DNA from: Alphaproteobacteria bacterium
GTDB lineage: Bacteria > Pseudomonadota > Alphaproteobacteria > Bin95
DNA: 64,000 nucleotides
Direction: 5' to 3'
NCBI GenBank assembly: GCA_022825195.1
Contig: JAJDYL010000101.1
Span: 7,740-71,739, forward strand
Shown: positions 5,144 through 56,507 of the stretch, one piece after another
Layout of the letters: every line of letters begins with the position of its first letter
How positions within the stretch are numbered: the stretch's first letter is position 1
Notes under the pieces: generated by a model
Told to the model about the DNA's origin: nothing
What the model saw: the letters and a program-made list of their open reading frames with translations, nothing else
Database searches by the model: none
Made by a program: the position numbers and the translations under genes

Positions 5144-5387
5144 CAGCCATGGCCTCCTCGTACCCGAAACCGCCCCGTGCCACCGATACGAGGCTCCGGA
5201 GCGGCGGGCATGAGACCCGTGGACACGGCCAGTGAAATGAACATGTTCGGAACAACCGTAATCCCGCGCCAAGGCGAATCCGGAGACATGAGGAGCCGTC
5301 GTCGTTCACCTTACACTGTGGAATGTCGACCAAAGATGGCCGACAGTCAAGTCTGCGGTGTTCCAGCCGGCCTGGACAGTGTTGATT

Positions 5388-6503
5388 CTATTGCTGAAAT
5401 CTGACGCTGCGCCTGCGCGCCGGACTATCGTCCGATGGTGGCGCAATCCGTTCCAGGGGCGGCCGGTGGAATAGTTGACCGTCCGGGTAGAACTGCTCGC
5501 AGTAGCGCCGGAATTTTCCGATCGGGCCGTCCGAGCGGCAGAGCCCCGGGTGGAGCCGGTATCGTTTCCGGCCCCAGATGACCACGTCCTGCAACACATC
5601 GTGTTTCTGGGCCGTCACGATGATCTTGTTCATGAGCCGGGTGCGCAGCCGAACAGGAAGGAATCGCATTCCGACGATCGGCCGCTTAGGCTTCAGCAGC
5701 CGCCGCACCTGGCTCACCAGTGTCATTTCGACCAGCTCGCCGTCGATGGGCGTTGCGAGCACCCATAATCGGGTGTCCATGCCGATATAATGTTCACGAA
5801 CCTCGACATAGGAATATCCGAGGCCGTGCACATGGGTTACGGCGGAAACATCGTAGGTGAAGCACTTCATTCCCAAGGCGGTCTGGGTTCGCCTGAAGTC
5901 GAAGCAACTCTTGAGCCAGGTTCCTTCTACCGATACCGGGCCGACCGCGTTCACGCTGTCATAGCCGTGCACATAGCGCAGATGCCCGAGATCGACGGAA
6001 TTCTCGGTCGTTTCCTGGGGATGCCCCGCAAATCGGACGCGCCGGACTTCCATCTCGCTCCAGTCGCTGTCGTCGGGCGGGGAAGCGGGCAGATCCCACT
6101 GTGGCGGCCGTCCGCCGCTGCCGCGCCAGGCAAAGACGAGACCCAGAATTTCGCGCGTCTCAAACACTCTCAATCTGGCGGACCGGGGCGGCGGCGCGTA
6201 GGGCGTCGCCACGCACTGACCGGTGACGTCATATTCGAACCCATGAAACGGACAGACGAGGCAACCGTTGCGCACCCGGCCTCCCGCCTCGGGCCCCAGA
6301 TCCGCGCCCAGATGGGGGCAGACCGCTACGGCTACGCAAACATCGCCGTTCCCGTTACACCAGACGACAATCCGTTCGCCAAGCCAGGTCTTTTGCAACA
6401 GCTTTTTGTCTTCTATCGTCTGGCGGCTGGCGACGAAATACCAGCCTTCCGGAAATGGAAAAAGCGAGGGAATACCGTCGGGATCGTTCGAACTGATTTG
6501 CAT
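5388..6503 (-). CDS. Rieske [2Fe-2S] non-heme-iron oxygenase, KshA/Neverland/SdmA-like
   Basis: Rieske motif CPHLGADL...(17 aa)...CPFHGFE and mononuclear iron motif D-x2-H-x4-H (DLGHLRYVHG). GGGAGAG RBS upstream of ATG. Confidence 0.85.
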   Translation of the reverse strand: MQISSNDPDGIPSLFPFPEGWYFVASRQTIEDKKLLQKTWLGERIVVWCNGNGDVCVAVAVCPHLGADLGPEAGGRVRNGCLVCPFHGFEYDVTGQCVATPYAPPPRSARLRVFETREILGLVFAWRGSGGRPPQWDLPASPPDDSDWSEMEVRRVRFAGHPQETTENSVDLGHLRYVHGYDSVNAVGPVSVEGTWLKSCFDFRRTQTALGMKCFTYDVSAVTHVHGLGYSYVEVREHYIGMDTRLWVLATPIDGELVEMTLVSQVRRLLKPKRPIVGMRFLPVRLRTRLMNKIIVTAQKHDVLQDVVIWGRKRYRLHPGLCRSDGPIGKFRRYCEQFYPDGQLFHRPPLERIAPPSDDSPARRRSVRFQQ

Positions 6504-6753
6504 GCGATACGGACTCTCCCAGGTCCGGCGGTCGCGGTCTTCCCCAACCGATTAATCGGTCCGGCAGCGAAGGTAATTATATACCTTACAATATCGCGTA
6601 AGGCGCGGCAACGGAAACAGTCAGCGAAGTGGAAACGGCTCCAACCTCAAACCGCATTCGACAACTTCGCGATACCGGCCGGTCGGGATTTCATGTCCGG
6701 CTCGGGCATCTCCGGAAATCCGGGAGCGAAGCCTGCCTGCAGACGGTGGTAGT
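6504..6753. promoter_or_regulatory. Divergent promoter region between the Rieske-P450-SMT operon (minus) and the COG2907 gene (plus)
   Basis: 250-nt AT-richer spacer (attaatcggtccggcagcgaaggtaattatatacc) with a small hairpin ccttac-aatatcgc-gtaagg. No operator consensus recognised. Confidence 0.3.
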
Positions 6754-8145
6754 ATGGGGGCGATGAATGAAACGGCGCAAGCAGCCTTGCCGAGAAGGAT
6801 TGCCATTATCGGCGCAGGCGTCTCCGGACTGGGGGTAGCCTGGGCGCTGCACCGCCATCCGGACCGGTTCGATTTCCGACTGTTCGAAGCCCAGGCCCAA
6901 ATCGGCGGAAACGCCATTACGGTAGATATGCCGCAGGACGACGGCACGTCGGTTCCTTTCGATATTTCGGTCACTGCCTGCATTCCCTCAGTCTATCACC
7001 ATATTGTCCTGCTCATGCAGCAGCACGGCATAGAACTGGTCGATACCAGATTCAGCTACAGCGTAAAGTACCGAGGCGGTATCTACGCTCACGATTTCGA
7101 CTCCGAAATCAGGAGGCAGCTGCAACCGGAAATCGACAAATTCCAGAGGCTCCTGAGATGTTTGAGGCGAGTGGGCACGCTCAACCGGTCCAGGTCCAGA
7201 CTGCTCAATGCTCTCAACCCGTTGAACTATGTCAGCATGGGCGCACTGCTCAATTTGGGCAGATTCTCCGGAGACTTCAGATACAAGATACTCAAGCCTA
7301 TGTTTGTCAATTTCCTGATGGCGACGAATGTATTCGATATGTCCGCTTCCCTGTTTGCCCGCTATTTGGAATTCTTCGATATTGAAACAGCAACCCCTAT
7401 GCAAACCTGGAAACAGGGAACACGGAGAATCTATGAAGAAATTTCAGCAGGTTTTCGGGAAAAGATTTACCTTAGCCGACCGGTTCATAAAGTATACCGC
7501 CATCGGTCAAAAGTGGTTGTAGAGGATGAGGGTGGGAATATGGAAACATTCGACGATGTCGTTCTTGCGTGCAATGCAAATCAGACATTGATGATTCTCG
7601 ACAAACCGTCTTTTTTGGAAAGCAGCCTTCTGTCTTCGGTCCGATACGAAAGCGAGTTGCATAACCACACCGTCGTGCATTCTGACGCGTCCGTCCTTCC
7701 GGATAACGAGGCCAGGCCCCTCGCCACGCGGAGCAACCATATCGAACAGTACGGCACCAGGCCCGACAATTACGAAATCACCTACATCATGCACAATCAG
7801 CAGCCTTGGGCGAAACGGTCGGACAAGCCCTGCCTCGTCACCTACAATCCGATCAGCCCTATCGACGAGGCTAGGATCGTCAGGAAGTGGTGGTTCCAGC
7901 ACATCGTCCACGATGTCCGCCATGTGACGGTTCTGACGCAGCTGTTTCGCTTCATCCAGGGCAGGAGGCGGACATGGCATTGCGGGGCCCACACGCTGAT
8001 CAACAGCCAGGAGACCTGTTTCGTATCCGGCCTTGTCACCGCGGGGCAGCTGGGCGCGGGCTATCCGTTTCAGGACGCTGAGGCACGGCGCTGGTTCAAC
8101 TTTTACGGGCGCATAATGTTCGGCTGGCGCTTCCGGAAGGCCTGA
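6754..8145 (+). CDS. FAD/NAD(P)-binding amine-oxidase-like oxidoreductase, COG2907 family (the family usually found beside cyclopropane-fatty-acid synthase genes)
   Basis: N-terminal Rossmann fold RIAIIGAGVSGLGVAW...FEAQAQIGGNAITV. Overall layout matches COG2907 members as I recall them (VVLACNANQTLMIL, C-terminal WHCGAH...SGL). Confidence 0.7.
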   Translation: MGAMNETAQAALPRRIAIIGAGVSGLGVAWALHRHPDRFDFRLFEAQAQIGGNAITVDMPQDDGTSVPFDISVTACIPSVYHHIVLLMQQHGIELVDTRFSYSVKYRGGIYAHDFDSEIRRQLQPEIDKFQRLLRCLRRVGTLNRSRSRLLNALNPLNYVSMGALLNLGRFSGDFRYKILKPMFVNFLMATNVFDMSASLFARYLEFFDIETATPMQTWKQGTRRIYEEISAGFREKIYLSRPVHKVYRHRSKVVVEDEGGNMETFDDVVLACNANQTLMILDKPSFLESSLLSSVRYESELHNHTVVHSDASVLPDNEARPLATRSNHIEQYGTRPDNYEITYIMHNQQPWAKRSDKPCLVTYNPISPIDEARIVRKWWFQHIVHDVRHVTVLTQLFRFIQGRRRTWHCGAHTLINSQETCFVSGLVTAGQLGAGYPFQDAEARRWFNFYGRIMFGWRFRKA

Positions 8146-8255: not shown

Positions 8256-8331
<76 letters not shown>

Positions 8332-8491: not shown

Positions 8492-10135
8492 GTGATTTTC
8501 GATCCGATTCTTCCGGCCTGGCGGGCGGAAAAGCACCGCGCCGAGGGCCATTGGCGCGACCGCATCCTGCTCGACTATTTCGACGAGGCTGTTGCGCGCA
8601 AGCCGGACGCCGTCGCGGTCGTCGCCCGTTGCATGGAGGACGGCGGCGAGACCGTGCTGTCCTGGCGCCAGCTCAAGCGGCTTTCCGACAGGATGGCCCT
8701 CGGCCTTCACATGCACGGTCTGCGGAAGGGAGATGTGCTCGCCTTCCAGCTCCCCAACTGGTGGCAGTTTTATTGCTTGCACATTGCCTGTCTTCGCATC
8801 GGCGTCTGCTCCAACCCGCTGATGCCGATTTTCCGCGAGCGCGAGCTGGCCTTCATGGTCGATTTTGCGGAAGCGAAGGCGCTGGTCACGCCGAAGATGT
8901 TTCGCGGCCACGACCACGCGGCCATGGCGCGGGAGCTCCGGTCCGCATTGCCGAAGCTGGAGCACCTGTTCGTCGTCGGCGAAAACTTCGAGACCGCGCT
9001 GCTGGACCCCACGCTTGACCAGGAGCTGGATGCCGCGACGGTGTTCGCGGCCGGAAGGCCGGACCCGGACGAGGTGATCCAGCTGCTCTACACCTCCGGC
9101 ACGACCGGCGAGCCCAAGGGGGTGATGCACACCTCCAACACGCTGATCGCCATGGTGATGAGCTATGTCGAGCGCATCGGCCTCGGCGAGGACACGGCGA
9201 TCCTGATGGGCTCTCCGTTGGCGCACCAGACGGGGTTCATGTACGGCCTGATGCTCTCGCCCGTGCTCGGCGCCAAGACCTGCTACCTCGACATCTGGGA
9301 TCCGGAGGCGGCGCTTCGGCTGATCCAGGACGAGGCCGTGACCTTCACCATGGGGGCGACGCCGTTCCTGGCCGACCTCGCCAACAGCCCCGTGCTCGAC
9401 CGCTACGACATTTCGAGCCTGGAGGCCTTCGTGTCCGCCGGGGCGCCGATCCCGCGCGTGCTGGTCGAACAGGCCGGAGAGCGCCTCGGCTGTTTCGTCC
9501 ATTCCGGCTGGGGCATGACCGAAAACGGCTTCGGCTCGGGCACGAGGAGGACCGACCCGCCGGCGCGCGTGTTCGGGACGGACGGCAGCGCCGTGTCCTG
9601 CCTGGAAGTGCGCGTGGTCGGGGAAGACGGAGCGCCGGTTCCGGACGACGAGGAAGGGCGCCTGCAGGTGCGGGGCGCCGGCCAGTTCGTCGGCTATCTG
9701 AAGCGCCCGGAGCGCTACGACACGGACGCGGACGGGTGGTTCGAGACCGGCGACAATGCCCGGATGGACGCCGACCGCTATATCAGGATATCGGGCCGGT
9801 CCAAGGACATCATCATCCGGGGCGGCGAGAACATTCCCATCGTCGAGGTCGAGGAACTGCTCTACCGGCATCCCGGGGTGGCGGACTGCGCCATCGTCGC
9901 CATGCCGGACGACCGCCTCGGCGAGCGGGCATGCGCCTTCGTGACGCTTCGGCCCGGTGCGGAGACGCTGACGTTCGATGCGATGTGCGGCTTCCTGCTG
10001 GAGCGCCGGCTGGCGAAGCCTTACCTGCCCGAGCGCCTGGAACTGGTGGACGCCATGCCGCGCACGGCTTCCGGGAAGATCCAGAAATTCCGCCTGCGCG
10101 AACTCGCGGCCGATCTCAGGCCAATGCGGGAATGA
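8492..10135 (+). CDS. AMP-dependent acyl-CoA synthetase/ligase
   Basis: AMP-binding signature LYTSGTTGEPKGVMHTSNT and C-terminal GEN/SGKIQK motifs. GTG start. Confidence 0.85.
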   Translation: MIFDPILPAWRAEKHRAEGHWRDRILLDYFDEAVARKPDAVAVVARCMEDGGETVLSWRQLKRLSDRMALGLHMHGLRKGDVLAFQLPNWWQFYCLHIACLRIGVCSNPLMPIFRERELAFMVDFAEAKALVTPKMFRGHDHAAMARELRSALPKLEHLFVVGENFETALLDPTLDQELDAATVFAAGRPDPDEVIQLLYTSGTTGEPKGVMHTSNTLIAMVMSYVERIGLGEDTAILMGSPLAHQTGFMYGLMLSPVLGAKTCYLDIWDPEAALRLIQDEAVTFTMGATPFLADLANSPVLDRYDISSLEAFVSAGAPIPRVLVEQAGERLGCFVHSGWGMTENGFGSGTRRTDPPARVFGTDGSAVSCLEVRVVGEDGAPVPDDEEGRLQVRGAGQFVGYLKRPERYDTDADGWFETGDNARMDADRYIRISGRSKDIIIRGGENIPIVEVEELLYRHPGVADCAIVAMPDDRLGERACAFVTLRPGAETLTFDAMCGFLLERRLAKPYLPERLELVDAMPRTASGKIQKFRLRELAADLRPMRE

Positions 10136-10964
10136 GCGCACCGAACGCGTCCAGGAAGGGCAGGGCCTTCTCCGTATAGCGCGGCGCGACGAGCACGGCG
10201 CGCTCGATGCGCGGATTATCCGCGAGCTTCCGCAACGCCTGCTCATTGGCGCCGTTGAAGGCGAACACGGAGACGGAGATGGTTGCGGGGTCGCGTCCGG
10301 CTTCGGCAGCCTGCCGGTCGAGTTCGGCGGTTGCGGCGGGGAAATCGTCCAGCAGCACGTCGATCGGCATCCAGCCGTCGCAATAGCGCACCGTGCGCTT
10401 CAGCCCGAGCGGTGTGGCGCCGCCATAGATGATCGGCGGATGCGGGCTCTGGACCGGCTTCGGGTAGGAGACGATCCGGTCGAAGCGGACGAACTCGCCT
10501 TCGTAGCTCGCCTCCTCTTCGGTCCAGATCGCCTTCATGGCCTCGACGCGCTCCCGCAGCAACTGCCAGCGCCGCGTGAAGTCGGTGCCGTGATTGGCCA
10601 TTTCCTCCGCATTCCAGCCGCCGCCGATGCCGAGCAGCAGGCGTCCGCCCGACAGGTAGTCGAGCGTTGCGGCTTCCTTCGCCAGCACGATCGGGTCGCG
10701 CTCGATCACGAGGCAGACCGCGGTTCCGACCTTGATGGTCGATGTGGCACCGGCCGCCGCCATCAGCGACACGAAGGGGTCGGCCATGTGGTAATAGGGC
10801 TTCGGCAAGGGGTCGCCGCCGGGATAGGGCGTCTCGCGGCTCGCGGGGATGTGGGTGTGCTCGCCGACCCAGAAGGACTCGAAGCCCCGCTCCTCCGCGG
10901 CCCGGGCCAGTTCATCGGGCCGGGTGCCGTATTCCGTGTTGTAGCTGAAGATGCCGAGCTTCAT
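10116..10964 (-). CDS. Luciferase-like (LLM class) flavin/F420-dependent oxidoreductase
   Basis: LLM fold motifs (FESFWVGEH, GGRLLLGIGGGW). GAGAGGGGG RBS upstream. Confidence 0.75.
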   Translation of the reverse strand: MKLGIFSYNTEYGTRPDELARAAEERGFESFWVGEHTHIPASRETPYPGGDPLPKPYYHMADPFVSLMAAAGATSTIKVGTAVCLVIERDPIVLAKEAATLDYLSGGRLLLGIGGGWNAEEMANHGTDFTRRWQLLRERVEAMKAIWTEEEASYEGEFVRFDRIVSYPKPVQSPHPPIIYGGATPLGLKRTVRYCDGWMPIDVLLDDFPAATAELDRQAAEAGRDPATISVSVFAFNGANEQALRKLADNPRIERAVLVAPRYTEKALPFLDAFGALIPALA

Positions 10965-11110
10965 CGCCGCCCCCTCTCGCAGTGCCGGGGAAGCCTAAAG
11001 CGATTCAGGCGCGGGGAAAGACCCTCCGGCCGGACCAGGATGTGCTTTCGCACAGCGGACGGGCGGGATAGGGTTGCGGCGAGGTTCGCTAAAGCGGAAG
11101 GCAGGCGCAG

Positions 11111-11884
11111 ATGGCCGATCTGGCGCAACGCTTGTGGGAAGCCCGGCGGGGCGGAACCCTGGTCGAGACGGCTGCGAGGCGGGAACTTGCCGGTCTGGAC
11201 GATGCCTATCATGTGCAGGACGAGGCCGTGCGCGTGTCCGGTTATGCGCGCACCGGCTGGAAGGTCGGGTCCACCAGTGCCGAGGCCCGGCGCAAGCTCG
11301 GCACCGACCGGCCGGGGGCTGGCGCGCTGCTTGAGCCTTTCTGCTTCGAGGACGGTGCGGAGGTGCCGGTCTTCGCCGCGCATGCGCCGGCTGTCGAGGG
11401 CGAGTTCGTATTCGCGATGGGCGAGGGCCTGCCGCCGCGCGACGCGCCGTTCGAGCGCGCCGAGGTCCTGGCTGCGGTCATGGGCGTCGCCGGCGGCATC
11501 GAGGTCGTCGGCTCGCGCTTCGAGGGCGGGCTTGCCGGACTCGGCCGGGAAGGCGTGACGGCCGATTTCGGCGCCAATATCGCCTTTGTCGAGGGCGAGA
11601 CGCGGCCCGACTGGCGGGACCGGGACCTGCGGGATGCCCGCGTGGCGCTGTCTGTAGACGGCGAGGCGCTGGCCGAGGGCACGGGATCGCTGGCGCTCGG
11701 CGACCCGGCGCTGGTGCTACTCTGGCTCGCCAACCATCTGCGCGAGCGCGGCGACGGGCTGCGCGCCGGCGACCGCGTGACCACCGGCACCTGCACCGGC
11801 GTGGCCGCAATCCGGCCCGGCGCGCGCGTGCTGGCGGATTTCGGAGAACTCGGTCGGGTCGGTTTCACCGCGGTTCCGGCATAG
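11111..11884 (+). CDS. 2-keto-4-pentenoate hydratase-like (MhpD/FAH-family) hydratase
   Basis: Similarity pattern of the 2-oxopent-4-enoate hydratase family (AYHVQDEAV...WKVG). Confidence 0.65.
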   Translation: MADLAQRLWEARRGGTLVETAARRELAGLDDAYHVQDEAVRVSGYARTGWKVGSTSAEARRKLGTDRPGAGALLEPFCFEDGAEVPVFAAHAPAVEGEFVFAMGEGLPPRDAPFERAEVLAAVMGVAGGIEVVGSRFEGGLAGLGREGVTADFGANIAFVEGETRPDWRDRDLRDARVALSVDGEALAEGTGSLALGDPALVLLWLANHLRERGDGLRAGDRVTTGTCTGVAAIRPGARVLADFGELGRVGFTAVPA

Positions 11885-29294: not shown

Positions 29295-30503
29295 CTACTC
29301 CGCCGCTTCGGCCGTTGTTTCCGTTATTCCGCCGACGGCCCCGGCCGCCGCGAGCTCTTCCACCTGCGCCGGCGTCCAGCCTTCCCTCAGCAGGATTTCC
29401 CGGGAGTGTTCGCCGATCTGCGGCGCCCTGTCGAGGTCCGGGTCGGACCCGATCTTCGCGAGACCCGGAATGTTGGTGACGGGCAGCGCGCCCGGCATGC
29501 CGGGATGGTCGATCCAGGACACGCTTTCCACCGCCTTCACATGCTCGTCCTCGAGAAAATGGCTGTAGGTGGAAACGGGCGCATTCATCACGCCTTCCTC
29601 GGTCAGCGCCTCGGCCCATTCCGCCGTCGTGCGCTTCAGGAACGCCTCGCGGATGACCGGCATCAGCTCCGCCTCGCGCTCGATGCGCTTTTCGCGGGAG
29701 TCGTAGCGCGGGTCGTCGGCAAGGTCCTCGCGTCCGAGCACCTTGCAGAGCGAGACATAGTGGCGCTCGCGCATGGCGGTGATGTTGATGTAGCCGTCGG
29801 CGGTCCGCATCGTCCCGACCGGCACGTAGAGCACCTGCGGCGCGCCGCCTTCCAGGTAATGCTCCATCACCTTGGCGGACTGGAACGCCGCCGCTGCCTG
29901 CATCAGCGAGCAGTCGATATAGGCGCCCTTGCCGAAGCGCAGCTTGCGGATGAGCGCGGACGAGATGGCCTGGTAGGCGTAGAGGCCGGTCATCACGTCG
30001 ACGGCGATCATGCCGATGCGCTGCGGCGTGCCGGAGGCGTCCCGGTTGATCGACATCCAGCCCGAGAAGGCCTGGATCACGGAGTCCGTCACCGGCAGGC
30101 GGTTGTAGGGGCCCTCCTGACCGAAGCCGGTGACCGAAAGATAGATGACCTCCGGATTGACGGCCTTTACCTGCTCGTAGCCAAGGCCGAAGCGCTTCAT
30201 CACGCCGGGGCGGAAGCTCTCGACCACTATATCGGCCTCGGAGGCGAGCTTGAAGGCGACCTTCTGCGCGGCCTCGTTCTTCATGTCCATCGCCAGCGAT
30301 TTCTTGCCGCGGTTGAACACGATTGAGTGGGCGCACTGGTTCCCGTAGGCCTTGCCGAGCGTGCGCCCCCAGTCGCCGTCGAGCGGCTCCAGCTTGGTAA
30401 CTTCCGCGCCGTGTTGCGCGAGCAGCATCGTGCTGTGCGGGCCGGCGACGCCCTGGGTGGCGTCGAAGACCTTGACGCCCTCCAGGGGCATGGGGGTCGG
30501 CAT
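29295..30503 (-). CDS. Family III CoA-transferase (CaiB/BaiF)
   Basis: LEGVKVFDATQGVAGP...SIVFNRGKKSLA motifs. Confidence 0.85.
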   Translation of the reverse strand: MPTPMPLEGVKVFDATQGVAGPHSTMLLAQHGAEVTKLEPLDGDWGRTLGKAYGNQCAHSIVFNRGKKSLAMDMKNEAAQKVAFKLASEADIVVESFRPGVMKRFGLGYEQVKAVNPEVIYLSVTGFGQEGPYNRLPVTDSVIQAFSGWMSINRDASGTPQRIGMIAVDVMTGLYAYQAISSALIRKLRFGKGAYIDCSLMQAAAAFQSAKVMEHYLEGGAPQVLYVPVGTMRTADGYINITAMRERHYVSLCKVLGREDLADDPRYDSREKRIEREAELMPVIREAFLKRTTAEWAEALTEEGVMNAPVSTYSHFLEDEHVKAVESVSWIDHPGMPGALPVTNIPGLAKIGSDPDLDRAPQIGEHSREILLREGWTPAQVEELAAAGAVGGITETTAEAAE

Positions 30504-38462: not shown

Positions 38463-38490
38463 GTGGCCGCGCTCGCGCGGCTTCCGTAAA

Positions 38491-38640
38491 ACTCCAACCC
38501 GAAAGAAACGCTCCGGCCCTCCGGCCGCTCAGGCAGACCGCTACAAGCGGCCGCCGGCTTACCGCAAACGCCGGATCCGAACGCAATGCCCCGGCCCTGC
38601 GGCCGCTCAGGCAAACCGCCACAAGCGGCCGCCGGGCCGG
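38491..38640. repeat. Two-copy imperfect tandem repeat, period about 78 nt (core 45-mer ccggccctNcggccgctcaggcaRaccgcYacaagcggccgccgg at 38513-38557 and 38591-38635)
   Basis: Seen directly in the sequence; 41/45 identity in the core. Adjacent to the transposase remnant. Confidence 0.7.
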
Positions 38641-50044: not shown

Positions 50045-50653
50045 TCAGGGCTCCCAAGTGCTCCCGATTTCCGCCGGTTCGTCGGTTCCTCCCGGCAGGT
50101 CGGCGAACGCCCGGCCGTCTTCGGGGCGGCGCCCCGGAGCGGTAGGGTGCAACATCTCGCGGACGATCTCGTCGGCGGACGGGACGATACCTGCCCGTTG
50201 CAGTCCCCTGAGCAATCCGACTGTGGACAGGAGGTGCATGTTCGGAGGCTTCCCGAACACGCGGAGGCTCCCGCGGTCCTCGAACAACACCAGAAGCGGG
50301 TCGCCGGACCGGAGGTAACGCTGTACGCCGCCTTCCTCGCTGATGAAGTCCACCATTGCCAACTCGCCGGCGTTCCTCTTGAGAGGCTTGCCGGCATTCC
50401 GTTTCCTGCGCTCCTCGGCGCCGATTTCGGTTTCCTCGATCGTGAAGGGCGGGCTGTGGCGTTCGATGAACGCCTTGACCTCGGCATCCTTCGGATAGCG
50501 CGGGTCGCTCGTAACCTCGTCATAGACGGCGTCCACCACCGCGATCGGCATGTCGAGCGGCAGAAGCAGGTCGAGCCGGTCCGCTACCCAGAGGCTGTCC
50601 AGCGGCCCTGCATCGGGGATCAGCAGCGTGCAGCGCTTCACGCCGCGTTCCAT
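50045..50653 (-). CDS. Putative toxin of a type II TA pair, family not recognised (about 203 aa)
   Basis: ATG at 50653 overlaps the stop of the upstream RHH gene by 14 nt (ATGGAACGCGGCGTGA read in two frames). Real-looking composition (MERGVKRCTLLIPDAGPLDSLWVADRLDLLLPL...VVDAVYDE...). Annotated from the in-frame portion of a longer track ORF. Confidence 0.45.
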   Translation of the reverse strand: MERGVKRCTLLIPDAGPLDSLWVADRLDLLLPLDMPIAVVDAVYDEVTSDPRYPKDAEVKAFIERHSPPFTIEETEIGAEERRKRNAGKPLKRNAGELAMVDFISEEGGVQRYLRSGDPLLVLFEDRGSLRVFGKPPNMHLLSTVGLLRGLQRAGIVPSADEIVREMLHPTAPGRRPEDGRAFADLPGGTDEPAEIGSTWEP

Positions 50654-50970
50654 ATCCGGACGAACATGGCCGCCTGGTTTTCGATTTCGTGCTCCGGCGG
50701 CCATGGCGGCGTCAAACCCGCATCGCCCAGGGCAACGAGAAGCTCCGCATAATCCCGGACGCCGGCGTCGCGGATTGCCACGCGCCGCGAGAGCAGTCCT
50801 GCGGCGTAGGCTTGGAGAGGGTCGCTTTCGGGAACCTCTACCTCGTCCGTAACGGCTTCGAGATGCTCCCGGATAATCGCCGTCATGCTGGTGCCGTGAG
50901 CAGCCGCATACGCCTTTGTCTTCGCTATGAGGGACTCCGGGAGGTTCAGGGTGGTATTTCGGTTCGCCAT
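50638..50970 (-). CDS. Ribbon-helix-helix (CopG-like) antitoxin with C-terminal extension
   Basis: N-terminal beta-strand plus helix (TTLNLPESLIAKTKAYAAAHGTSMTAIIREHLE) typical of RHH antitoxins. Confidence 0.55.
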   Translation of the reverse strand: MANRNTTLNLPESLIAKTKAYAAAHGTSMTAIIREHLEAVTDEVEVPESDPLQAYAAGLLSRRVAIRDAGVRDYAELLVALGDAGLTPPWPPEHEIENQAAMFVRIWNAA

Positions 50971-51098: not shown

Positions 51099-52289
51099 AT
51101 GTCCGCCACGCTTCCTCTCGCCCATGTCAGGGTTCTCGATCTCACCCGCGCCCGCGCGGGGCCGACGGCCGTGCGCCAGCTCGCCGACTGGGGGGCGGAT
51201 GTGGTCAAGGTCGAGGCGCCGCCCGGCGAGGATGCGCGTTCGGTCGTGTCCGGCAGCCGCCACGGCTTCGACTTCCAGAACCTCCATCGCAACAAGCGGT
51301 CGATGACGCTCAATCTCAAGGCCGACAAGGGCCGCGAGATTTTCCTGGCGATGGCGAAGGACGCCGACGTGGTGGTCGAGAACTACCGGGCGGGCGTGAA
51401 ACACCGGCTCGGCATCGACTACGAGGCCGTGCGCGCCGTCAATCCGCGCATCGTCTATGGCTCGATCTCGGGCTTCGGCCAGTCGGGCCCCTACCGCGAC
51501 CGGCCGGGCGTGGACCAGATCGCGCAGGGCATGGGCGGTCTCATGTCGATCACCGGCCTGCCGGGGCAGGGGCCGGTCCGGGTCGGCATTCCGATCGCGG
51601 ACCTGACGGCCGGCCTTCACCTGGCGCAGGGCATCCTGCTGGCGCTTTACGAGCGCGAGCGCTCGGGCGAGGGGCAGTGGGTGCATACCTCGCTGCTGGA
51701 AGCGCAGATCATGATGCTGGACTTCCAGGCGGCGCGCTGGACGGTCTCCGGCGAGGTGGCGCCGCAGGCGGGCAACGACCACCCGACCTCGATCCCGACC
51801 GGCGTGTTCCCGACCTCGGACGGGCATATCAATATCGCCGCCTCCGGCAACACCATGTTCGAGCGGCTCTGCGGCGCGCTCGGCTGCCCGGAGCTCGTCT
51901 CCCATCCCGACTATGCCGACGACGGGAGCCGGTCGAAGAACCGCGCCGCGCTCAACAGGGTACTCGGCGAATACACGGCCAGGCGCCCGAGCGAGGAATG
52001 GGTCATCGTGCTGAACGAGGCGCGTGTGCCCTGCGGGCCGATCAACAGCATCGACAGGACGATGACCGACCCGCAGGTGCGCCATCTCGGCATCGAGAAG
52101 GTCATGGCCCACCCGGAACTCGGCGATGTCGGGGTCGTCGGCCAGGCGGCGACCCTCTCGCGCAGCGGCGGCCGGCCGGATGTCCGCCTCCACACCCCGG
52201 ACCAGGGCGAGCACACGGGCGAAGTGCTGGCCGCGCTCGGCTATGACGGCGCGGCGGTCGAGGCGCTCCGGGCGGACGGAGTGATTTAG
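51099..52289 (+). CDS. Family III CoA-transferase (CaiB/BaiF)
   Basis: VRVLDLTRARAGP...RNKRSMTLNLK and catalytic Asp region. Confidence 0.85.
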   Translation: MSATLPLAHVRVLDLTRARAGPTAVRQLADWGADVVKVEAPPGEDARSVVSGSRHGFDFQNLHRNKRSMTLNLKADKGREIFLAMAKDADVVVENYRAGVKHRLGIDYEAVRAVNPRIVYGSISGFGQSGPYRDRPGVDQIAQGMGGLMSITGLPGQGPVRVGIPIADLTAGLHLAQGILLALYERERSGEGQWVHTSLLEAQIMMLDFQAARWTVSGEVAPQAGNDHPTSIPTGVFPTSDGHINIAASGNTMFERLCGALGCPELVSHPDYADDGSRSKNRAALNRVLGEYTARRPSEEWVIVLNEARVPCGPINSIDRTMTDPQVRHLGIEKVMAHPELGDVGVVGQAATLSRSGGRPDVRLHTPDQGEHTGEVLAALGYDGAAVEALRADGVI

Positions 52290-52378
52290 CCGGGAACCCT
52301 CACGGGGGTCATAGTCCGGCGACGCCGCCCTCCGGGCCAGCCGGTCTTTTCCGATGCCCATGCCGGGAGGCGCACCCG

Positions 52379-53554
52379 ATGGACAAGCCGACCGACCCGA
52401 TTGGCAACTGGAGCTTCCCTGCTCCTATCCGCTTCGGCGCAGGCCGCATAAGCGAGCTTCCCCAAGCTTGCCTCGAACTCGGCATCCGCCGGCCCCTGCT
52501 GGTCACGGACCCCGGGCTGGCGGCGCTGCCCATGGTGGGCGAAGCGGTGGCGTCCTGCGCGCAGGCGGGCCTCGCATGCGCGGTGTTCTCGGACGTGCGC
52601 GCGAACCCGGTCGAGGCCAATGTCCATGACGGGGTGGCGGCGCTGCGGGACGGAGACCATGACGGCCTTGTCGCCTTCGGCGGCGGGAGCGCCCTCGATG
52701 TGGGGAAGGCGATCGGTTTCATGGCGGGTCAGTCGCGCCCTATCTGGGACTTCGAGGACCGCGAGGACTGGTGGACCCGGGCCGCCGAGGACGGAATGCT
52801 GCCGGTGGTCGCCGTTCCCACCACATCGGGCACGGGTTCGGAGACGGGGCGCGCCTCGGTCATCACCGACGCCCGCGCCGAACACACCAAGCGGATCATC
52901 TTCCATCCCCGGATGATGCCGGGCCGCGTGATCCTGGACCCCGAACTCACCGTGGGGCTTCCCGCCCACCTCACCGCGGCGGTCGGCATGGACGCGCTCT
53001 CCCACAGCCTCGAAGCCTATTCGAGCCCGGTCTTCCATCCGCTGGCGCAGGGAATTGCGCTCGAAGCCATGCGGCTCATCCGCGACGCGCTTCCCGCCGC
53101 GGTGAAGAACCCCTCCGACCTTGCCGCGCGGAGCCGCATGCAGGTGGCGGCCGCGATGGGCTCGACCGCCTTCCAGAAGGGGCTGGGCGCCATGCACGCC
53201 CTCAGCCACCCCTGCAGCTCGCTGCTCGACACCCACCATGGCCTGACGAACGCGGTGGTCATGCCCTATGTGCTCGTCTTCAACCGGCCGGCCGTCGAGA
53301 CGAAGATGGCGGCCCTCGCGCGCTACCTGGACCTGCCGGACCCGTCCTTCCCGGGCGTCCTCGACTGGATTCTTGCCCTGCGCGAGGAGATCGGGATTCC
53401 GCACACGCTCAAGGGCATCGGCGTGGACGCCTCGTTCGCAAGGCGCATGGCGCCGATGGCGGCGGCGGACCCGTCGGCTGCAACCAACCCGGTTCCTCTC
53501 GATACAGGCGCGTTGGAGCGCCTCTACCTTCGGGCGATCGACGGCGTGCTGTAG
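52379..53554 (+). CDS. Iron-containing (group III) alcohol dehydrogenase
   Basis: GGGSALDVGK NAD-binding motif and His-rich metal site (HSLEAYS...HALSHP). Confidence 0.85.
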   Translation: MDKPTDPIGNWSFPAPIRFGAGRISELPQACLELGIRRPLLVTDPGLAALPMVGEAVASCAQAGLACAVFSDVRANPVEANVHDGVAALRDGDHDGLVAFGGGSALDVGKAIGFMAGQSRPIWDFEDREDWWTRAAEDGMLPVVAVPTTSGTGSETGRASVITDARAEHTKRIIFHPRMMPGRVILDPELTVGLPAHLTAAVGMDALSHSLEAYSSPVFHPLAQGIALEAMRLIRDALPAAVKNPSDLAARSRMQVAAAMGSTAFQKGLGAMHALSHPCSSLLDTHHGLTNAVVMPYVLVFNRPAVETKMAALARYLDLPDPSFPGVLDWILALREEIGIPHTLKGIGVDASFARRMAPMAAADPSAATNPVPLDTGALERLYLRAIDGVL

Positions 53555-53562
53555 CCGGTCGG

Positions 53563-53614
53563 CCCTACCGCGTCGGGATGGGGTGGTCGCCGGAATAATC
53601 GTAGAAGTCGCGGC
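53563..53614. repeat. Direct repeat copy 1 (52 bp, 50/52 identical to 54653-54704): a duplicated 3' end of hbd
   Basis: ccctaccgcgtcgggatggggtggtcgccggaataatcgtagaagtcgcggc. Its reverse complement encodes ...DFYDYSGDHPIPTR*. Confidence 0.8.
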
Positions 53615-53740
53615 TGCGGCGGGAGACAGTATGCCGTTGCCGCTCCTGCGTCTCCTGTCTCTTGCTAAACGGGGGCATACGAGGCAAGCAGATTACGACG
53701 CTTCTGAGCATTGTTCTCCCGCCTAGACCACGGAGGCCGT

Positions 53741-53983
53741 ATGGCTGCCGCTACCTTCGACATCTTCGCCGCCGCCAAGGCGTTGCAGGATGCTGGCGTC
53801 GACAGGGAACAAGTGCAGTCGATAGCGGCGGCACTGGGTGAACGCGACCGGGATCAATTAGCGACAAAAGCAGACTTGGCAAACCTGCGTGCAGAACTGG
53901 TCGTCCGTCTATACGCTGTCGCTGCCGCGCTGGCTGCGGGGCTGGGCGGCCTCCTTGTGGCCGTACTGGACCGCCTGCCGTAA
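53741..53983 (+). CDS. DUF1640-like small coiled-coil protein with C-terminal TM segment
   Basis: MAAATFDIFAAAKALQDAGVDREQ...ATKADLANLRAEL...hydrophobic tail. Lies inside the AT-rich insert. Confidence 0.5.
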   Translation: MAAATFDIFAAAKALQDAGVDREQVQSIAAALGERDRDQLATKADLANLRAELVVRLYAVAAALAAGLGGLLVAVLDRLP

Positions 53984-54024
53984 CGACGACATTCGCTTGG
54001 AGTCCGGACTAGCAGAAGCACTCC

Positions 54025-54624
54025 TTACTCTTCATCTAGCTTTGTTGTGCCTGCGCAATTGCCGAGTTCCAGAATTACCTCATTATAGCTAACTTTGGTG
54101 TGTCTGAAGTGGCTGTTTATGCCCAATTGGAAGCTGGGACTGCTATCGCTACAATCAACAAGGGCATCGCCGTCAGTGAAAGCAAGTTCTCTGCAAACTC
54201 TATATGGATTGAATTTGTAATTGTCGACCTTTATACATGATGAAAACCAAGGTTTATACGGGCTACCAGGAAGATGTTTGTTGTGTAATTCTCGTTCTGA
54301 TTTTCGTAAAGCATGCTCAGAAGCACATCTTGAAAACATCGGATGTTCGCCATATTTATTATTCAGATACTTCAAAGCTTCATCCTCATCAAAAGAAAAT
54401 GGTATGTGTATCTTCGTTATAGTGAACTTTCTTTCCTTGTAGCCCTTTACACCCCATTTCTTGTTGAAAATATCATAATTAAAGTGCAATGATAAATCGG
54501 GCGCGCAAATGGTTGTAAAACCTTTAAGTGGACGATCTGTAACTTCCGCAGCCGATACTTGGTCGACAGACATAATCAGCAGTAAGCCCAAACTGAAACT
54601 TGTTACCCTGTTTCGAATGGGCAC
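54025..54624 (-). CDS. Secreted cysteine-containing hypothetical protein (signal peptide), very low GC
   Basis: 199 aa. Signal peptide LGLLLIMSVDQVSAAE, 8 Cys, no recognisable domain. Gene is about 40% GC in a roughly 68% GC genome. Confidence 0.5.
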   Translation of the reverse strand: MPIRNRVTSFSLGLLLIMSVDQVSAAEVTDRPLKGFTTICAPDLSLHFNYDIFNKKWGVKGYKERKFTITKIHIPFSFDEDEALKYLNNKYGEHPMFSRCASEHALRKSERELHNKHLPGSPYKPWFSSCIKVDNYKFNPYRVCRELAFTDGDALVDCSDSSPSFQLGINSHFRHTKVSYNEVILELGNCAGTTKLDEE

Positions 54625-54652
54625 GATTAAATGCTCTTTGGGCCGTCTGTCG

Positions 54653-54704
54653 CCCTACCGCGTCGGGATGGGGTGGTCGCCGGAATAGTCGTAGAAGCCG
54701 CGGC
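54653..54704. repeat. Direct repeat copy 2 (the authentic 3' end of hbd)
   Basis: ccctaccgcgtcgggatggggtggtcgccggaatagtcgtagaagccgcggc. Confidence 0.8.
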
Positions 54705-55548
54705 CGGCCTTGCGGCCGATCCAGCCGGCCTCGACATATTTCACCAGCAGCGGGCAGGGACGGTACTTGCTGTCGGCGAGCCCGTCATAGAGCACCTGCA
54801 TCACCGCGAGGCAGGTGTCCAGCCCGATGAAGTCCGCGAGCTCCAGCGGCCCCATCGGGTGGTTGGCGCCGAGGCGCATGCCGGTGTCGATGGCATCCAC
54901 CGAGCCCACGCCCTCATAGAGCGTATAGACGGCCTCGTTGATCATCGGCAGCAGGATGCGGTTGACGATGAAGGCCGGGAAGTCCTCCGCCGCCACCGGC
55001 GTCTTGCCGAGCGAGACGGCGAACTCCTTCACGTCCTCGAAGGTGTTGTCCCCGGTCGCGATGCCCCGGATCAGCTCGACCAGCGACATCATCGGCACCG
55101 GGTTCATGAAGTGCAGGCCGATGAACCGCTCCGGGCGGTCGGTCGTGGAAGCGAGCCGCGTGATCGAGATCGAGGAGGTGTTGGAGGCGACGATGGCGCC
55201 CTCGGCGAGATGCGGCAGCAGCGCCTTGAACACTTCGCGCTTCACCGCCTCGTTCTCCGTGGCGGCCTCGATCACGATGTCGCAGTCGCCGAAGCCGGCA
55301 TAATCGGTGCCGGCGTCGATGCGCGCCAGCGCGTCGGCCTTCGCGGCCTCGTCGAACAGGCCCCGGCGCAATTGCCGGTCCATGTTGCGGCCGATGACGG
55401 CGAGGCTCCGCTCCAGCGCCCGCTCCTCGATATCGACCAAGCGCACATCGAAGCCCGAAATCGCGGCCACATGCGCGATGCCGCTGCCCATCTGCCCGGC
55501 GCCGACGACGCCGACCGTGCGGATACGGCTATCCAGACCCTTCGGCAT
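54655..55548 (-). CDS. hbd: 3-hydroxybutyryl-CoA / 3-hydroxyacyl-CoA dehydrogenase
   Basis: VGVVGAGQMGSGIA Rossmann motif and NTSS catalytic block. An in-frame TTG at 55557 overlapping the etfA stop is an alternative start. Confidence 0.9.
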   Translation of the reverse strand: MPKGLDSRIRTVGVVGAGQMGSGIAHVAAISGFDVRLVDIEERALERSLAVIGRNMDRQLRRGLFDEAAKADALARIDAGTDYAGFGDCDIVIEAATENEAVKREVFKALLPHLAEGAIVASNTSSISITRLASTTDRPERFIGLHFMNPVPMMSLVELIRGIATGDNTFEDVKEFAVSLGKTPVAAEDFPAFIVNRILLPMINEAVYTLYEGVGSVDAIDTGMRLGANHPMGPLELADFIGLDTCLAVMQVLYDGLADSKYRPCPLLVKYVEAGWIGRKAGRGFYDYSGDHPIPTR

Positions 55549-55553
55549 GGCGG

Positions 55554-56507
55554 TCAATCGTTTTCCGCCTTGTATTCTTCGATCACGCCGGTGAGTTCCG
55601 GCACGGCCTTGAACAGGTCGGCGACGAGGCCGTAATCCGCGACCTGGAAGATCGGCGCTTCCTCGTCCTTGTTTATGGCGACGATCACCCTGCTGTCCTT
55701 CATGCCGGCGAGATGCTGGATGGCGCCCGAAATGCCGACCGCGATGTAGAGCTCCGGGGCGACGACCTTGCCGGTCTGCCCGACCTGGTAGTCGTTCGGC
55801 ACGTAGCCCGCATCGACCGCCGCGCGCGAGGCGCCGACCGCCGCGCCCAGCCGGTCGGCAAGGGCTTCCAGGATGTTGAAGTTCTCGCCGGAGCCCATGC
55901 CGCGCCCGCCGGAAACGACGATGCCGGCGGTGGTGAGTTCCGGGCGCTCGGACTTGGTGAGCTCGCGTCCGACGAAGCTGGAGAGCCCGACGCTGCCGGC
56001 GCCCGACGCCGCCTCGACCGGCGCGGAACCGCCCTCTGCGGGAGCCGCGTCGAACGCCGTCATGCGCACCGTGATGAGCTTGACGGGGTCGCCGGACTGC
56101 ACCTTCGCCATGGCGTTGCCCGCATAGATGGGGCGCACGAAAGTATCCGCGGAGACGACCTCCGTAATGTCCGAGATCTGCGCCACGTCCAGCAGCGCCG
56201 CGGCGCGGGGCAGGATGTTCTTGCCGTTCGCGGTCGCCGGCGCGAGCACATGGCTGTAGCTGCCGGAAAGATCGACCACCAGCTTCGCGACATTTTCCGC
56301 CAGCGCGTGTTCGTAGGCCGCGTCTTCGGCGACGAGGACCTTCGCGACGCCCGCGACCTGCGCGGCCGCCTCGGCGGCGGGGCCGCAGCCCTGGCCGGCG
56401 ACCAGCACATGCACGTCGGCATCGATCTCCGCCGCCGCGGCGACGGCGTTGCGCGTGGCCGCCTTCAAGGTGGCGTTGTCGTGTTCGGCAATGACGAGAA
56501 CGCTCAT
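55554..56507 (-). CDS. etfA: Electron transfer flavoprotein alpha subunit
   Basis: FAD-binding C-terminal domain ([19 protein letters not shown]). Confidence 0.9.

Follow-up and report, generated by a model that had tools for sequence, protein, structure and literature searches.

A direct repeat of the hbd 3′ end as the probable scar of an old multi-breakpoint rearrangement between convergent gene clusters in an alphaproteobacterial lineage

The locus described here lies in a 64,000-nucleotide stretch of an alphaproteobacterial contig (hereafter the window), where genes for a CoA-transferase, Fe-ADH (an alcohol dehydrogenase), hbd, ETF and an SDR are found together with toxin-antitoxin genes. 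The features under study are listed in Table 1. The hbd gene closes an etfB-etfA-hbd cluster, and an identical Hbd protein was found on a related contig, L001. An Rfam scan of positions 53400-54800 gave no RNA family match, and a scan for promoters and terminators revealed nothing informative.

Table 1. Features of the hbd/CoA-transferase junction, in window coordinates
Feature	Position	Strand	Description
Family III CoA-transferase	51099..52289	+	Pfam E=4.4e-118; syntenic in all relatives; conserved right-hand anchor
51-nt joint, CoA-transferase stop to Fe-ADH cassette	52290..52340	.	Conserved in type B contigs L002 and L095
Fe-ADH cassette	52341..53554	+	ORF 52379-53554 plus ~40 nt upstream; ends exactly at the stop codon
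Repeat copy X2	53562..53614	-	Non-coding remnant of the hbd 3′ end, displaced; identical to X1 at 51/53 positions
Resident spacer S (53616-53740) and 80-aa gene (53741-53983)	53616..53985	+	Inverted relative to hbd in comparison with type A relatives
Foreign AT-rich segment N1	53986..54650	-	41.5% GC; carries the 199-aa orphan gene (54025-54624)
Repeat copy X1	54652..54704	-	Final 50 nt of functional hbd and the 3 nt that follow its stop; continuous with the intact ORF
hbd, 3-hydroxyacyl/butyryl-CoA dehydrogenase	54655..55548	-	Pfam 3HCDH_N and 3HCDH, E=3.6e-61 and 1.3e-33

A repeat search returned copies X1 and X2 as a direct repeat of 53 nt, with a start-to-start distance of 1090. These values are essentially those of a preliminary description of the window, which had given 52 bp (50/52 identical) and a spacing of 1,090 bp. 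The pair is the sole direct repeat of at least 32 nt with more than 80% identity across the 64 kb window, and exactly two sites match its 36-nt core, where none is expected (100 shuffles). The same description had read the repeat as a duplication of the 3′ end of hbd with one copy just after the alcohol dehydrogenase stop, and both points are borne out. The right-hand copy, X1, is the genuine end of the intact gene (protein end ...GFYDYSGDHPIPTR-stop), and X2 begins 7 nt after the Fe-ADH stop codon (53552-53554). Past the hbd stop the similarity extends imperfectly for ~13 nt (GGCCG(AC)GGC vs CGACCGGC); the tail of X1, 12-13 nt long, reaches ~54639, and that of X2 (53555-53561) joins the Fe-ADH stop codon. 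In blastn against relatives, positions 53554-53614 aligned as a direct copy of the hbd end. Two antisense ORFs (53268-53726 and 54631-55635) that had been noted for a common, repeat-derived ALPRRDGVVAGI are both present and both contain it; this is a trivial consequence of the repeat in DNA of high GC content.

The 1,037 bp between the repeats hold two ORFs only, the 80-aa and 199-aa genes. The whole interval had been described as a low-GC insert, which is true of 53986-54650 (41.5%) and untrue of the 370 bp that comprise S and the 80-aa gene (62.7%). Searches with the 199-aa protein in Pfam, NCBIfam, PHROGs and PDB sequences gave no match, and its AlphaFold model (pLDDT 34) was too poor for a fold search. 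It fell into 2 clusters among 5.8 billion proteins, and its own cluster stood alone among 1.84 billion representatives. By these searches the protein is a true orphan. Its N-terminus looks like a signal peptide by eye and six Cys are conserved, in agreement with its earlier designation as a secreted Cys-rich orphan. Comparison of the gene with its counterpart in L002 gave a dN/dS of 0.26 at a dS of 0.33 (0.26-0.28 in the flanks), indicating purifying selection. The label ‘DUF1640-like’ previously given to the 80-aa gene found no support: its product had no DUF1640 (PF07798) match in Pfam even at E≤10, nothing significant in NCBIfam and no relative in a PDB sequence search. The one profile match was to phrog_17872, a family of unknown function (E=4e-7). 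Exact-protein look-ups with long-start versions of the ORFs and for P0001 returned no record.

Related contigs showed two arrangements of this region, which we refer to as type A and type B. In type A, found in at least 12 related contigs (L003-L012, L093, L094, L096-L099) with ~90% nucleotide identity in the flanks, hbd is followed by spacer S and the 80-aa gene in the same direction, and then by the CoA-transferase gene facing them. These contigs have no repeat, no Fe-ADH at this site and no 199-aa gene, and all of them lack N1. By blastn, window positions 53985-53616 correspond to positions 8245-7876 of L004 in reversed orientation (79% identity, E=3e-86), and L003-L012 and L093-L099 gave the same inverted match. 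S and the 80-aa gene are resident DNA that lies inverted in the window. Some 20 nt downstream of the 80-aa stop codon are also present in L093 and L094, and the first ~20 nt of N1 beside that stop may be part of the resident unit with the 80-aa gene.

Type B, the arrangement of the window, recurs in L001 and L002, both with the 1090-nt spacing, and in L095, which keeps both repeats and has most of the 199-aa gene deleted. A frameshifted ~75-nt remnant of the 5′ end of that gene is retained in L095. This remnant led us to reject L095 as a precursor that predates the gene and to regard it as a deletion derivative. Since the structure is common to three other assemblies, including L095 with its two repeats, it is inherited and represents neither an artefact nor a recent integration. 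In the tree of the 80-aa gene, type B forms one tight clade nested among lineages with the A orientation, and the type A order is probably ancestral. The opposite polarity was rejected: besides the nesting of type B, a change from B to A would require removal of three segments and a precise re-inversion.

The 80-aa gene of type B differs from type A copies by 14-16% of nucleotides (dS 0.59), against 8-9% in the flanks (dS 0.31-0.38), and the flank trees conflict with that of the 80-aa gene. Taken together, these comparisons appear to document the persistence of an inversion-type variant while the flanks recombine freely between lineages. Relatives were sampled chiefly through the 80-aa gene, so that loci in which hbd directly faces Fe-ADH and that gene is lacking would escape. 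Among the 20 related loci obtained in this way there was no uninterrupted junction of hbd and Fe-ADH with one core copy. Further afield, a scan of genome contigs with hbd yielded best relatives that were only 75% identical; in none of them is hbd followed by the 80-aa gene or by Fe-ADH, and only two carry distant (37-40%) CoA-transferase paralogues. A scan of metagenome contigs with the CoA-transferase gave, among the matches listed, relatives of at most 72% identity.

The surplus copy of the hbd tail seems to be decaying. X2 carries a Gly-to-Asp change in the window and more changes in L001, and has lost the stop codon in L095. Within one genome X1 and X2 nevertheless carry common lineage-specific variants, which indicates that the two copies trade sequence by gene conversion. 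X2 is long enough for such exchange with X1, and recombination between them could in principle delete the intervening 1,090 bp.

Fe-ADH orthologues are numerous in the lineage (89-95% identity). Some are on contigs whose lengths equal those of the contigs with the type A loci L004 and L011, and for the L004 contig the presence of an orthologue was directly confirmed. In the type A genome ctg21574c the orthologue is located ~550 kb from the hbd locus between unrelated genes; in L100 the native neighbours are a luciferase-like monooxygenase gene and acyltransferase-3/SGNH genes. Two further contigs, of 46,258 and 317,517 nt, appear from matching lengths to have both an Fe-ADH orthologue (P0043, P0052) and an 87-aa variant of the small gene (P0014, P0018), and may represent intermediates. 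Homology between the window gene and L100 is limited to L100 positions 9963-11176, that is, from about -40 through the stop codon, with a dS (0.40) similar to that of the flanks. By these comparisons the cassette is evidently a copy or relocation of the resident gene of the lineage, newly placed here. As only the stretch from about -40 to the stop codon is common to the native and the window gene, it resembles a templated, ORF-sized insertion. The 51-nt joint that precedes it matched neither the type A spacer nor the region upstream of native Fe-ADH. Judged by its composition and its absence from type A relatives, the AT-rich 199-aa gene evidently arrived beside hbd as foreign DNA.

Type B thus has five junctions within 2.4 kb, with S and the 80-aa gene inverted and the hbd tail duplicated in direct orientation. 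Three of the junctions use a single ancestral position, 13-16 nt beyond the stop codon of hbd: X1 with the foreign gene, X2 with the Fe-ADH stop, and inverted S with the 5′ end of X2. In the ancestral order, the two sites joined in the last of these were separated by only ~60 nt, and both fall in an 8-nt inverted repeat (CCGGCCGC / GCGGCCGG) on either side of the duplicated segment; a local U-turn template switch would yield exactly such a joint. Candidate microhomology was read at the junctions open to analysis, three of the five, and consisted of GCCG / CCGGCCGC in inverted orientation at inverted S and X2 and CTA at X2 and Fe-ADH, both of them short matches in DNA of 67-70% GC. We rejected a hairpin or ‘fragile site’ at the end of hbd, as the fold of the inverted repeat did not surpass shuffled sequences in stability (z = -0.09). 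Because the microhomologies measure only 3-8 nt in DNA this rich in GC and the stem behaves like shuffled sequence, these matches are weak evidence when taken alone.

The balance of this evidence inclines us to read the repeat as the scar of an old, one-off rearrangement with several breakpoints at the level of microhomology, in which hbd was kept intact and a decaying extra copy of its end was left behind. The ancestral region between the convergent etfB-etfA-hbd and CoA-transferase clusters would have been rebuilt in the ancestor of type B from six pieces: hbd with X1; the foreign 199-aa gene; inverted S with the 80-aa gene; X2, in which the final 53 (to ~66) nt of the hbd region are repeated; Fe-ADH, an ORF-sized copy of the lineage's own gene; and the CoA-transferase gene. 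The duplicated tail would have had no att function and would have let hbd retain an intact C-terminus. Mechanistically, template switching during replication, guided by microhomologies (MMBIR/FoSTeS-like) and with a ‘U-turn’ at the short inverted repeat on either side of the hbd 3′ end, would be most likely; breakage followed by end-joining of several fragments would be the alternative. The replicative version predicts that a native copy of Fe-ADH should still be present in type B genomes. We infer both the molecular mechanism and the occurrence of a single event rather than several; no intermediate forms between types A and B were found among the sampled relatives, and one event is therefore indistinguishable from a series.

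MMBIR is defined by complex products in which duplication, inversion and templated insertions at microhomologies occur together (PMC2621351), and inversions of a U-turn-like kind have been described at short inverted repeats (PMC4417113). As in the former, the hbd locus combines clustered breakpoints with duplication, inversion and templated insertion of distant resident sequence, with possible microhomology of 3-8 nt at the analysable junctions (PMC2621351). As in the latter, one junction joins opposite-strand points ~60 nt apart within a short inverted repeat (PMC4417113). The locus differs from these systems in that one of the inserted pieces is foreign AT-rich DNA and in that all junctions coincide with the limits of ORFs, probably because selection favoured intact genes; moreover, it is known from evolutionary comparison rather than from observed events.

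A history in two steps was also considered. According to it, Fe-ADH first moved directly downstream of hbd, so that hbd faced Fe-ADH followed by the CoA-transferase gene, and the 80-aa gene was lost; a ~1-kb composite of the 199-aa gene with an 80-aa gene and its spacer, both derived from a related donor, was inserted later, with a target duplication of ~66 nt and no dedicated recombinase. The composite would have entered by a Campbell-type single crossover, on a circle with a short stretch of hbd homology, or during repair of a break with widely staggered ends. The sharp common ends of the repeat and its imperfect common tail up to the Fe-ADH stop look as if an hbd-Fe-ADH junction had been duplicated, but the tail can equally be explained as native sequence downstream of hbd (GGCCGGGC in type A vs GGCCGACGGC / CGACCGGC). 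The elevated dS of the type B 80-aa gene relative to its flanks fits a more distant donor, and the conflict between the flank and 80-aa trees means that these lineages clearly exchange DNA; the extra divergence is, however, also expected if an inversion blocks recombination with type A alleles. A simple insert between duplicated 3′ ends does exist at a neighbouring gene in L096. No empty site with hbd facing Fe-ADH was seen, in a sampling biased against such loci. Furthermore, the import would have to end by coincidence exactly where the donor spacer abuts the hbd tail, and its other end would have to join within the inverted microhomology, coincidences that a local event does not need. We consider the two-step history unlikely.

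Campbell-type integration of a circle by a single crossover requires no site-specific enzyme. It would leave exactly the homologous segment directly repeated on each side of the inserted DNA, a layout like that of X1 and X2. This route needs, however, a recipient site with hbd joined to Fe-ADH, which is absent from the sampled relatives. It also needs a circle in which the resident spacer is inverted against the 5′ end of an hbd fragment, itself an illegitimate junction.

Integrases that target tRNA and tmRNA genes and other gene 3′ ends leave a direct repeat of the 3′ end and preserve the gene. The preliminary description had proposed such an origin. On this model the 1,037 bp would be what is left of a site-specific element, or a cassette mobilised by one; attP of the element would have been recombined with the hbd 3′ end by a recombinase of the tyrosine or serine type, and the repeats would be attL and attR. 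The locus does resemble 3′-end-targeting genomic islands in its duplicated gene end, in the intact hbd and in the displaced partial copy that lies beyond AT-rich orphan cargo, and the weak match of the 80-aa protein to a phage family, phrog_17872, points the same way. It differs in that a third of the supposed element is resident at this site, in the other orientation and free of repeats, in at least 12 relatives, and in that Fe-ADH, outside the would-be attL, is itself newly placed. An uninterrupted adh-hbd junction, which that proposal had suggested looking for in related genomes, was the ancestral state in no sampled relative. No recombinase, transposase or tRNA was found in or near the structure, either in the window or in 15 kb of the relative L002, in agreement with the earlier remark that there is no integrase; the window's only tRNA gene, tRNA-Phe (8256-8331), is 45 kb away. 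The target is not reused elsewhere: 80 other alphaproteobacterial hbd loci were examined over 6 kb, and in not one of them was the local hbd 3′ end present twice. The structure is of long standing and has been passed on vertically, and its synonymous divergence is normal. Excision has left no trace; in L095, the one case of loss, an internal deletion spared both repeats, with no recombination between them. The attL/attR reading is thus poorly supported and is already refuted in large part by the inverted resident segment; we regard it as very improbable. What stands of the proposed insertion is a foreign 199-aa gene beside an hbd kept intact by duplication of its 3′ end, with the displaced copy beyond; a 1-kb element that carried in both genes does not. 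Relatives with both genes and no repeat had been named as evidence for local duplication; those found carry the 80-aa gene only, without the repeat.

Known transposases typically produce target-site duplications of 2-15 bp. A direct duplication of the target flanks inserted DNA here too, but it is far longer (53-66 nt), and there is no transposase domain and, among the pairs reported, no terminal inverted repeat at the insert ends.

Chimeric joining of reads from co-occurring metagenome strains has a negligible chance of explaining the structure: the window and its relatives do appear to be metagenome-assembled, and X2 of L001 differs from that of the window at 3/53 positions despite 98.8% overall identity, but order, spacing and junctions are the same in assemblies made independently from separate samples (ERZ23495034, ERZ25068511 and ERZ28654231), whose copies are 1-9% divergent with all ORFs intact.

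The convergent hbd/CoA-transferase junction has received at least six different insertions in the lineage, and sequence comparison revealed that the inserts are unrelated to one another. In L096 a 135-aa gene stands between two copies of the CoA-transferase tail. A 3′-end duplication beside another insertion, as in L096, hints at a recurrent process and against a one-off accident. The two independent cases at this hotspot (the hbd tail in type B and the CoA-transferase tail in L096), together with the ORF-trimmed Fe-ADH, raise the speculative idea, to which we give little credence, that the lineage may have a recurrent and unrecognised way to append ORF-sized cassettes to convergent operon ends, duplicating the last 50-130 nt of the target. 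If true, and if it acted via a dedicated enzyme or an RNA/cDNA intermediate, this would be a new mechanism of gene capture, distinct from integrons, transposons and integrases.

A repeat of a gene 3′ end around AT-rich DNA can closely mimic attL and attR, and calls for caution, since relatives may reveal a composite, as they did here. The locus also indicates that a repeat of 53 nt suffices for ongoing gene conversion. The part most worth following is the recurrence of 3′-end duplications beside ORF-sized insertions at the hotspot; should a specific mechanism lie behind it, this would be relevant to how operons gain single genes at their ends. More broadly, the joining of Fe-ADH with CoA-transferase, hbd and ETF genes suggests that metabolic genes can be assembled by non-homologous events in this uncultured lineage.

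The duplication of the hbd 3′-end noted in the preliminary description was recovered by a repeat search as a 53-nt direct repeat, identical at 51 positions, with a spacing of 1,090 nt. Its 36-nt core occurs at exactly two sites in the window (0 expected in shuffles), and the hbd-tail pair is the only direct repeat of such length and identity within the 64 kb. The right copy is the functional end of hbd, while the left, a displaced relic, starts 7 nt from the stop codon of the gene for an Fe-dependent alcohol dehydrogenase (Fe-ADH); the repeat extends imperfectly ~13 nt past the hbd stop. Of the interval between the copies, described as low in GC, only 53986-54650 is AT-rich (41.5% GC), whereas 53616-53985 has 62.7%. 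At the repeat structure no RNA family was found, and a promoter/terminator scan gave no informative signal. Coordinates are collected in the table, together with a tandem repeat, a complementary pair and a low-GC tract elsewhere in the window. Since one member of the complementary pair falls within the CoA-transferase gene, its counterpart is probably part of another family III CoA-transferase, a paralogue encoded on the other strand. In the low-GC tract, the ORFs tested include no integrase.

Features of the window
Feature	Position	Strand	Remarks
Low-GC tract	4200-7900		44-58% GC; Rieske/KshA-like oxygenase gene, amine-oxidase-like gene, several ORFs without Pfam match
tRNA-Phe	8256-8331		beside the tract; only tRNA of the window, 45 kb from the structure
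Complementary pair	30092-30239 and 51360-51507		148 nt, 70% complementary
Tandem repeat	38469-38624		78-nt unit, two copies, 73% identity
Toxin-antitoxin-like module	50045-50970	-	DUF6364/RHH antitoxin-like ORF 50638-50970 and partner
Fe-ADH gene	52379-53554	+
Relic repeat copy	53562-53614
80-aa gene	53741-53983	+	between repeat copies
Palindrome	54001-54010		AGTCCGGACT, perfect, 10 nt
199-aa gene	54025-54624	-	between repeat copies
Functional repeat copy	54652-54704
hbd	54655-55548	-	Pfam 3HCDH_N and 3HCDH; true 3′-end is the right repeat copy

The ancestral order (A type) was seen in at least 12 related metagenome contigs (L003-L012, L093, L094, L096-L099) with flanking genes ~90% identical. 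It reads etfB-etfA-hbd> spacer 80-aa gene> <CoA-transferase, with a spacer of 110–135 nt (348 nt in L097); the repeat, Fe-ADH and the 199-aa gene are all absent from this hbd/CoA-transferase locus. By blastn, window 53554-53614 is the end of hbd copied in direct orientation, and 53616-53985 is the A-type spacer and 80-aa gene in reverse (E = 3e-86 and 79% identity with L004); CoA-transferase homology picks up again at 52289. Thus, a third of the supposed inserted element is resident DNA turned round. About 20 nt on the 3′-side of the 80-aa stop are common to the window and L093/L094 and are not found in other A-type loci. The 80-aa gene tree places copies with the window's arrangement (B type) in one tight clade nested within A-orientation lineages, and B is therefore the derived state. 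In it, hbd is followed after 30 nt by the 199-aa gene on its strand, and on the other strand Fe-ADH is followed by the 80-aa gene, so that each convergent cluster appears to have gained a terminal gene.

Exact-protein and homologue look-ups identified the B type in three independent metagenome contigs. Two of them, L001 (98.8% identical to the window) and L002 (~91%), carry both repeat copies 1,090 nt apart. In the third, L095, both copies remain, as do Fe-ADH and the inversion of the 80-aa gene, but of the 199-aa gene only a ~75-nt frameshifted remnant of the 5′-end is left; L095 is a deletion derivative in which the repeats were not used. The shared architecture indicates that the structure is inherited and old, which rules out both an assembly artefact and a recent integration.

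The 80-aa protein, previously labelled DUF1640-like, matches neither DUF1640 nor any other Pfam family; its sole match is phrog_17872, a phage family of unknown function (E = 4e-7). The 199-aa protein, in which six Cys are conserved, is a true orphan, as previously proposed: it falls in two clusters among 5.8 billion proteins and only in its own among 1.84 billion representatives, has no match in Pfam, NCBIfam, PHROG or PDB, and its AlphaFold model is unusable (pLDDT 34). Despite this status the ORF is a real gene, since relative to its L002 homologue (83% identical) dN/dS is 0.26 and dS 0.33, near that of the flanking genes (0.26–0.28). The palindrome between the converging stops of these two genes may be their shared terminator stem.

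Fe-ADH orthologues at 89–95% identity are frequent in the lineage, and the contig of L004 was confirmed to bear one; another is on a contig equal in length to that of L011. In the A-type genome ctg21574c the gene lies ~550 kb from hbd, between luciferase-like monooxygenase and acyltransferase genes. Homology to this native locus (L100) is limited to about –40 through the stop codon (window 52341-53554, L100 9963-11176), a near-exact trim to the ORF. A resident gene has thus been placed here as a copy barely larger than its ORF, and Fe-ADH, with a dS of 0.40, similar to the flanks, is likewise a newcomer at its site, with the relic hbd tail on one side and the CoA-transferase gene on the other. 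No relative sampled through the 80-aa gene has the adh-hbd junction earlier suggested as the ancestral target.

Three junctions use one ancestral point, 13–16 nt on the 3′-side of the hbd stop: functional copy to foreign gene, relic copy to Fe-ADH stop (CTA in common), and inverted spacer to relic 5′-end (GCCG in common). In the ancestral order only ~60 nt separate the partners of the last, which are on opposite strands, and a local U-turn template switch would yield this junction exactly as found. Such a switch at inverted repeats has a precedent (PMC4417113), and the duplicated segment in A-type loci has an arm of an 8-nt inverted repeat at each end, CCGGCCGC overlapping its 5′-end and GCGGCCGG just 3′ of the stop codon. 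Duplication, inversion and templated insertion from a distant locus, all present here, are the hallmark of MMBIR/FoSTeS-type events (microhomology-mediated break-induced replication/fork stalling and template switching; PMC2621351). The repeat is best explained as the scar of a complex, non-site-specific rearrangement, and belongs to an already known kind. Because the microhomologies are short and lie in GC-rich DNA, and the inverted-repeat stem has no unusual stability, the mechanism is one that we infer.

Less probably, the course had two steps: Fe-ADH arrived, and a composite segment of 1 kb was inserted later with a ~66-nt target duplication. The hbd/Fe-ADH empty site that this presupposes would lie outside a sampling anchored on the 80-aa gene. 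Site-specific integration of a 1-kb element at the hbd 3′-end, with the copies as attL/attR, was the preliminary proposal and has a low probability: the structure and its surroundings have no recombinase, transposase or tRNA, the hbd 3′-end has no second copy in any of 80 other hbd loci, part of the putative element is inverted resident DNA, and Fe-ADH, outside the repeat, is itself relocated.

The relic copy is decaying: in the window it has Asp for Gly, in L001 it has additional changes, and in L095 its stop codon is lost. Variant TCG occurs only in L095, in both copies, and ATC occurs in both window copies and is absent from the L001 relic; such lineage-specific variants common to both copies of one genome indicate gene conversion. 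The repeats therefore recombine, and could in principle do so with loss of the 1,090 bp; none of the relatives examined shows that deletion.

Insertions are concentrated in the convergent hbd/CoA-transferase junction, a hotspot where relatives together carry six or more mutually unrelated inserts: the 199-aa gene, Fe-ADH, a 135-aa gene, a 148-aa gene, an AT-rich piece of 241–260 bp and a repeated 232-bp element. In L096 the insert 6381-6835, which comprises the 135-aa gene and its RBS, separates the small gene from the CoA-transferase gene and lies within a diverged direct duplication (6263-6380 and 6836-6969; ~80% identity, indels) whose ~125-nt unit comprises the last ~110 nt of the CoA-transferase gene and ~15 nt downstream. 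This is a second, independent instance of that architecture, now located at the other convergent gene; on it rests the reading, of low probability, that a recurrent capture process operates at the hotspot. The 232-bp element, GC-rich with internal palindromes, looks like a MITE/REP-type repeat; its three copies (L097:5734-5966, L097:9000-9227 and L098:8468-8695, reverse strand) share 84–85% identity, and one L097 copy sits between hbd and the 80-aa gene. Just past the CoA-transferase gene, toxin-antitoxin-like modules differ: the window has the one with the DUF6364/RHH antitoxin-like ORF, and relatives have NTP_transf_2/HEPN, both or none (L002:10065-10803; L093:7831-9582).

In trees of etfA-hbd (window 54655-56507) and CoA-transferase (51099-52289) with L002-L098, B types are not grouped, unlike in the 80-aa tree. 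Given this conflict, the arrangement behaves like a structural variant of long standing within a population that recombines. The dS of the 80-aa gene is unusually low in the comparison of the window with L002 (0.06, against 0.26–0.28 in the flanks). These sequence comparisons suggest that lineages often exchange DNA by homologous recombination and that the inversion acts as a barrier to it.
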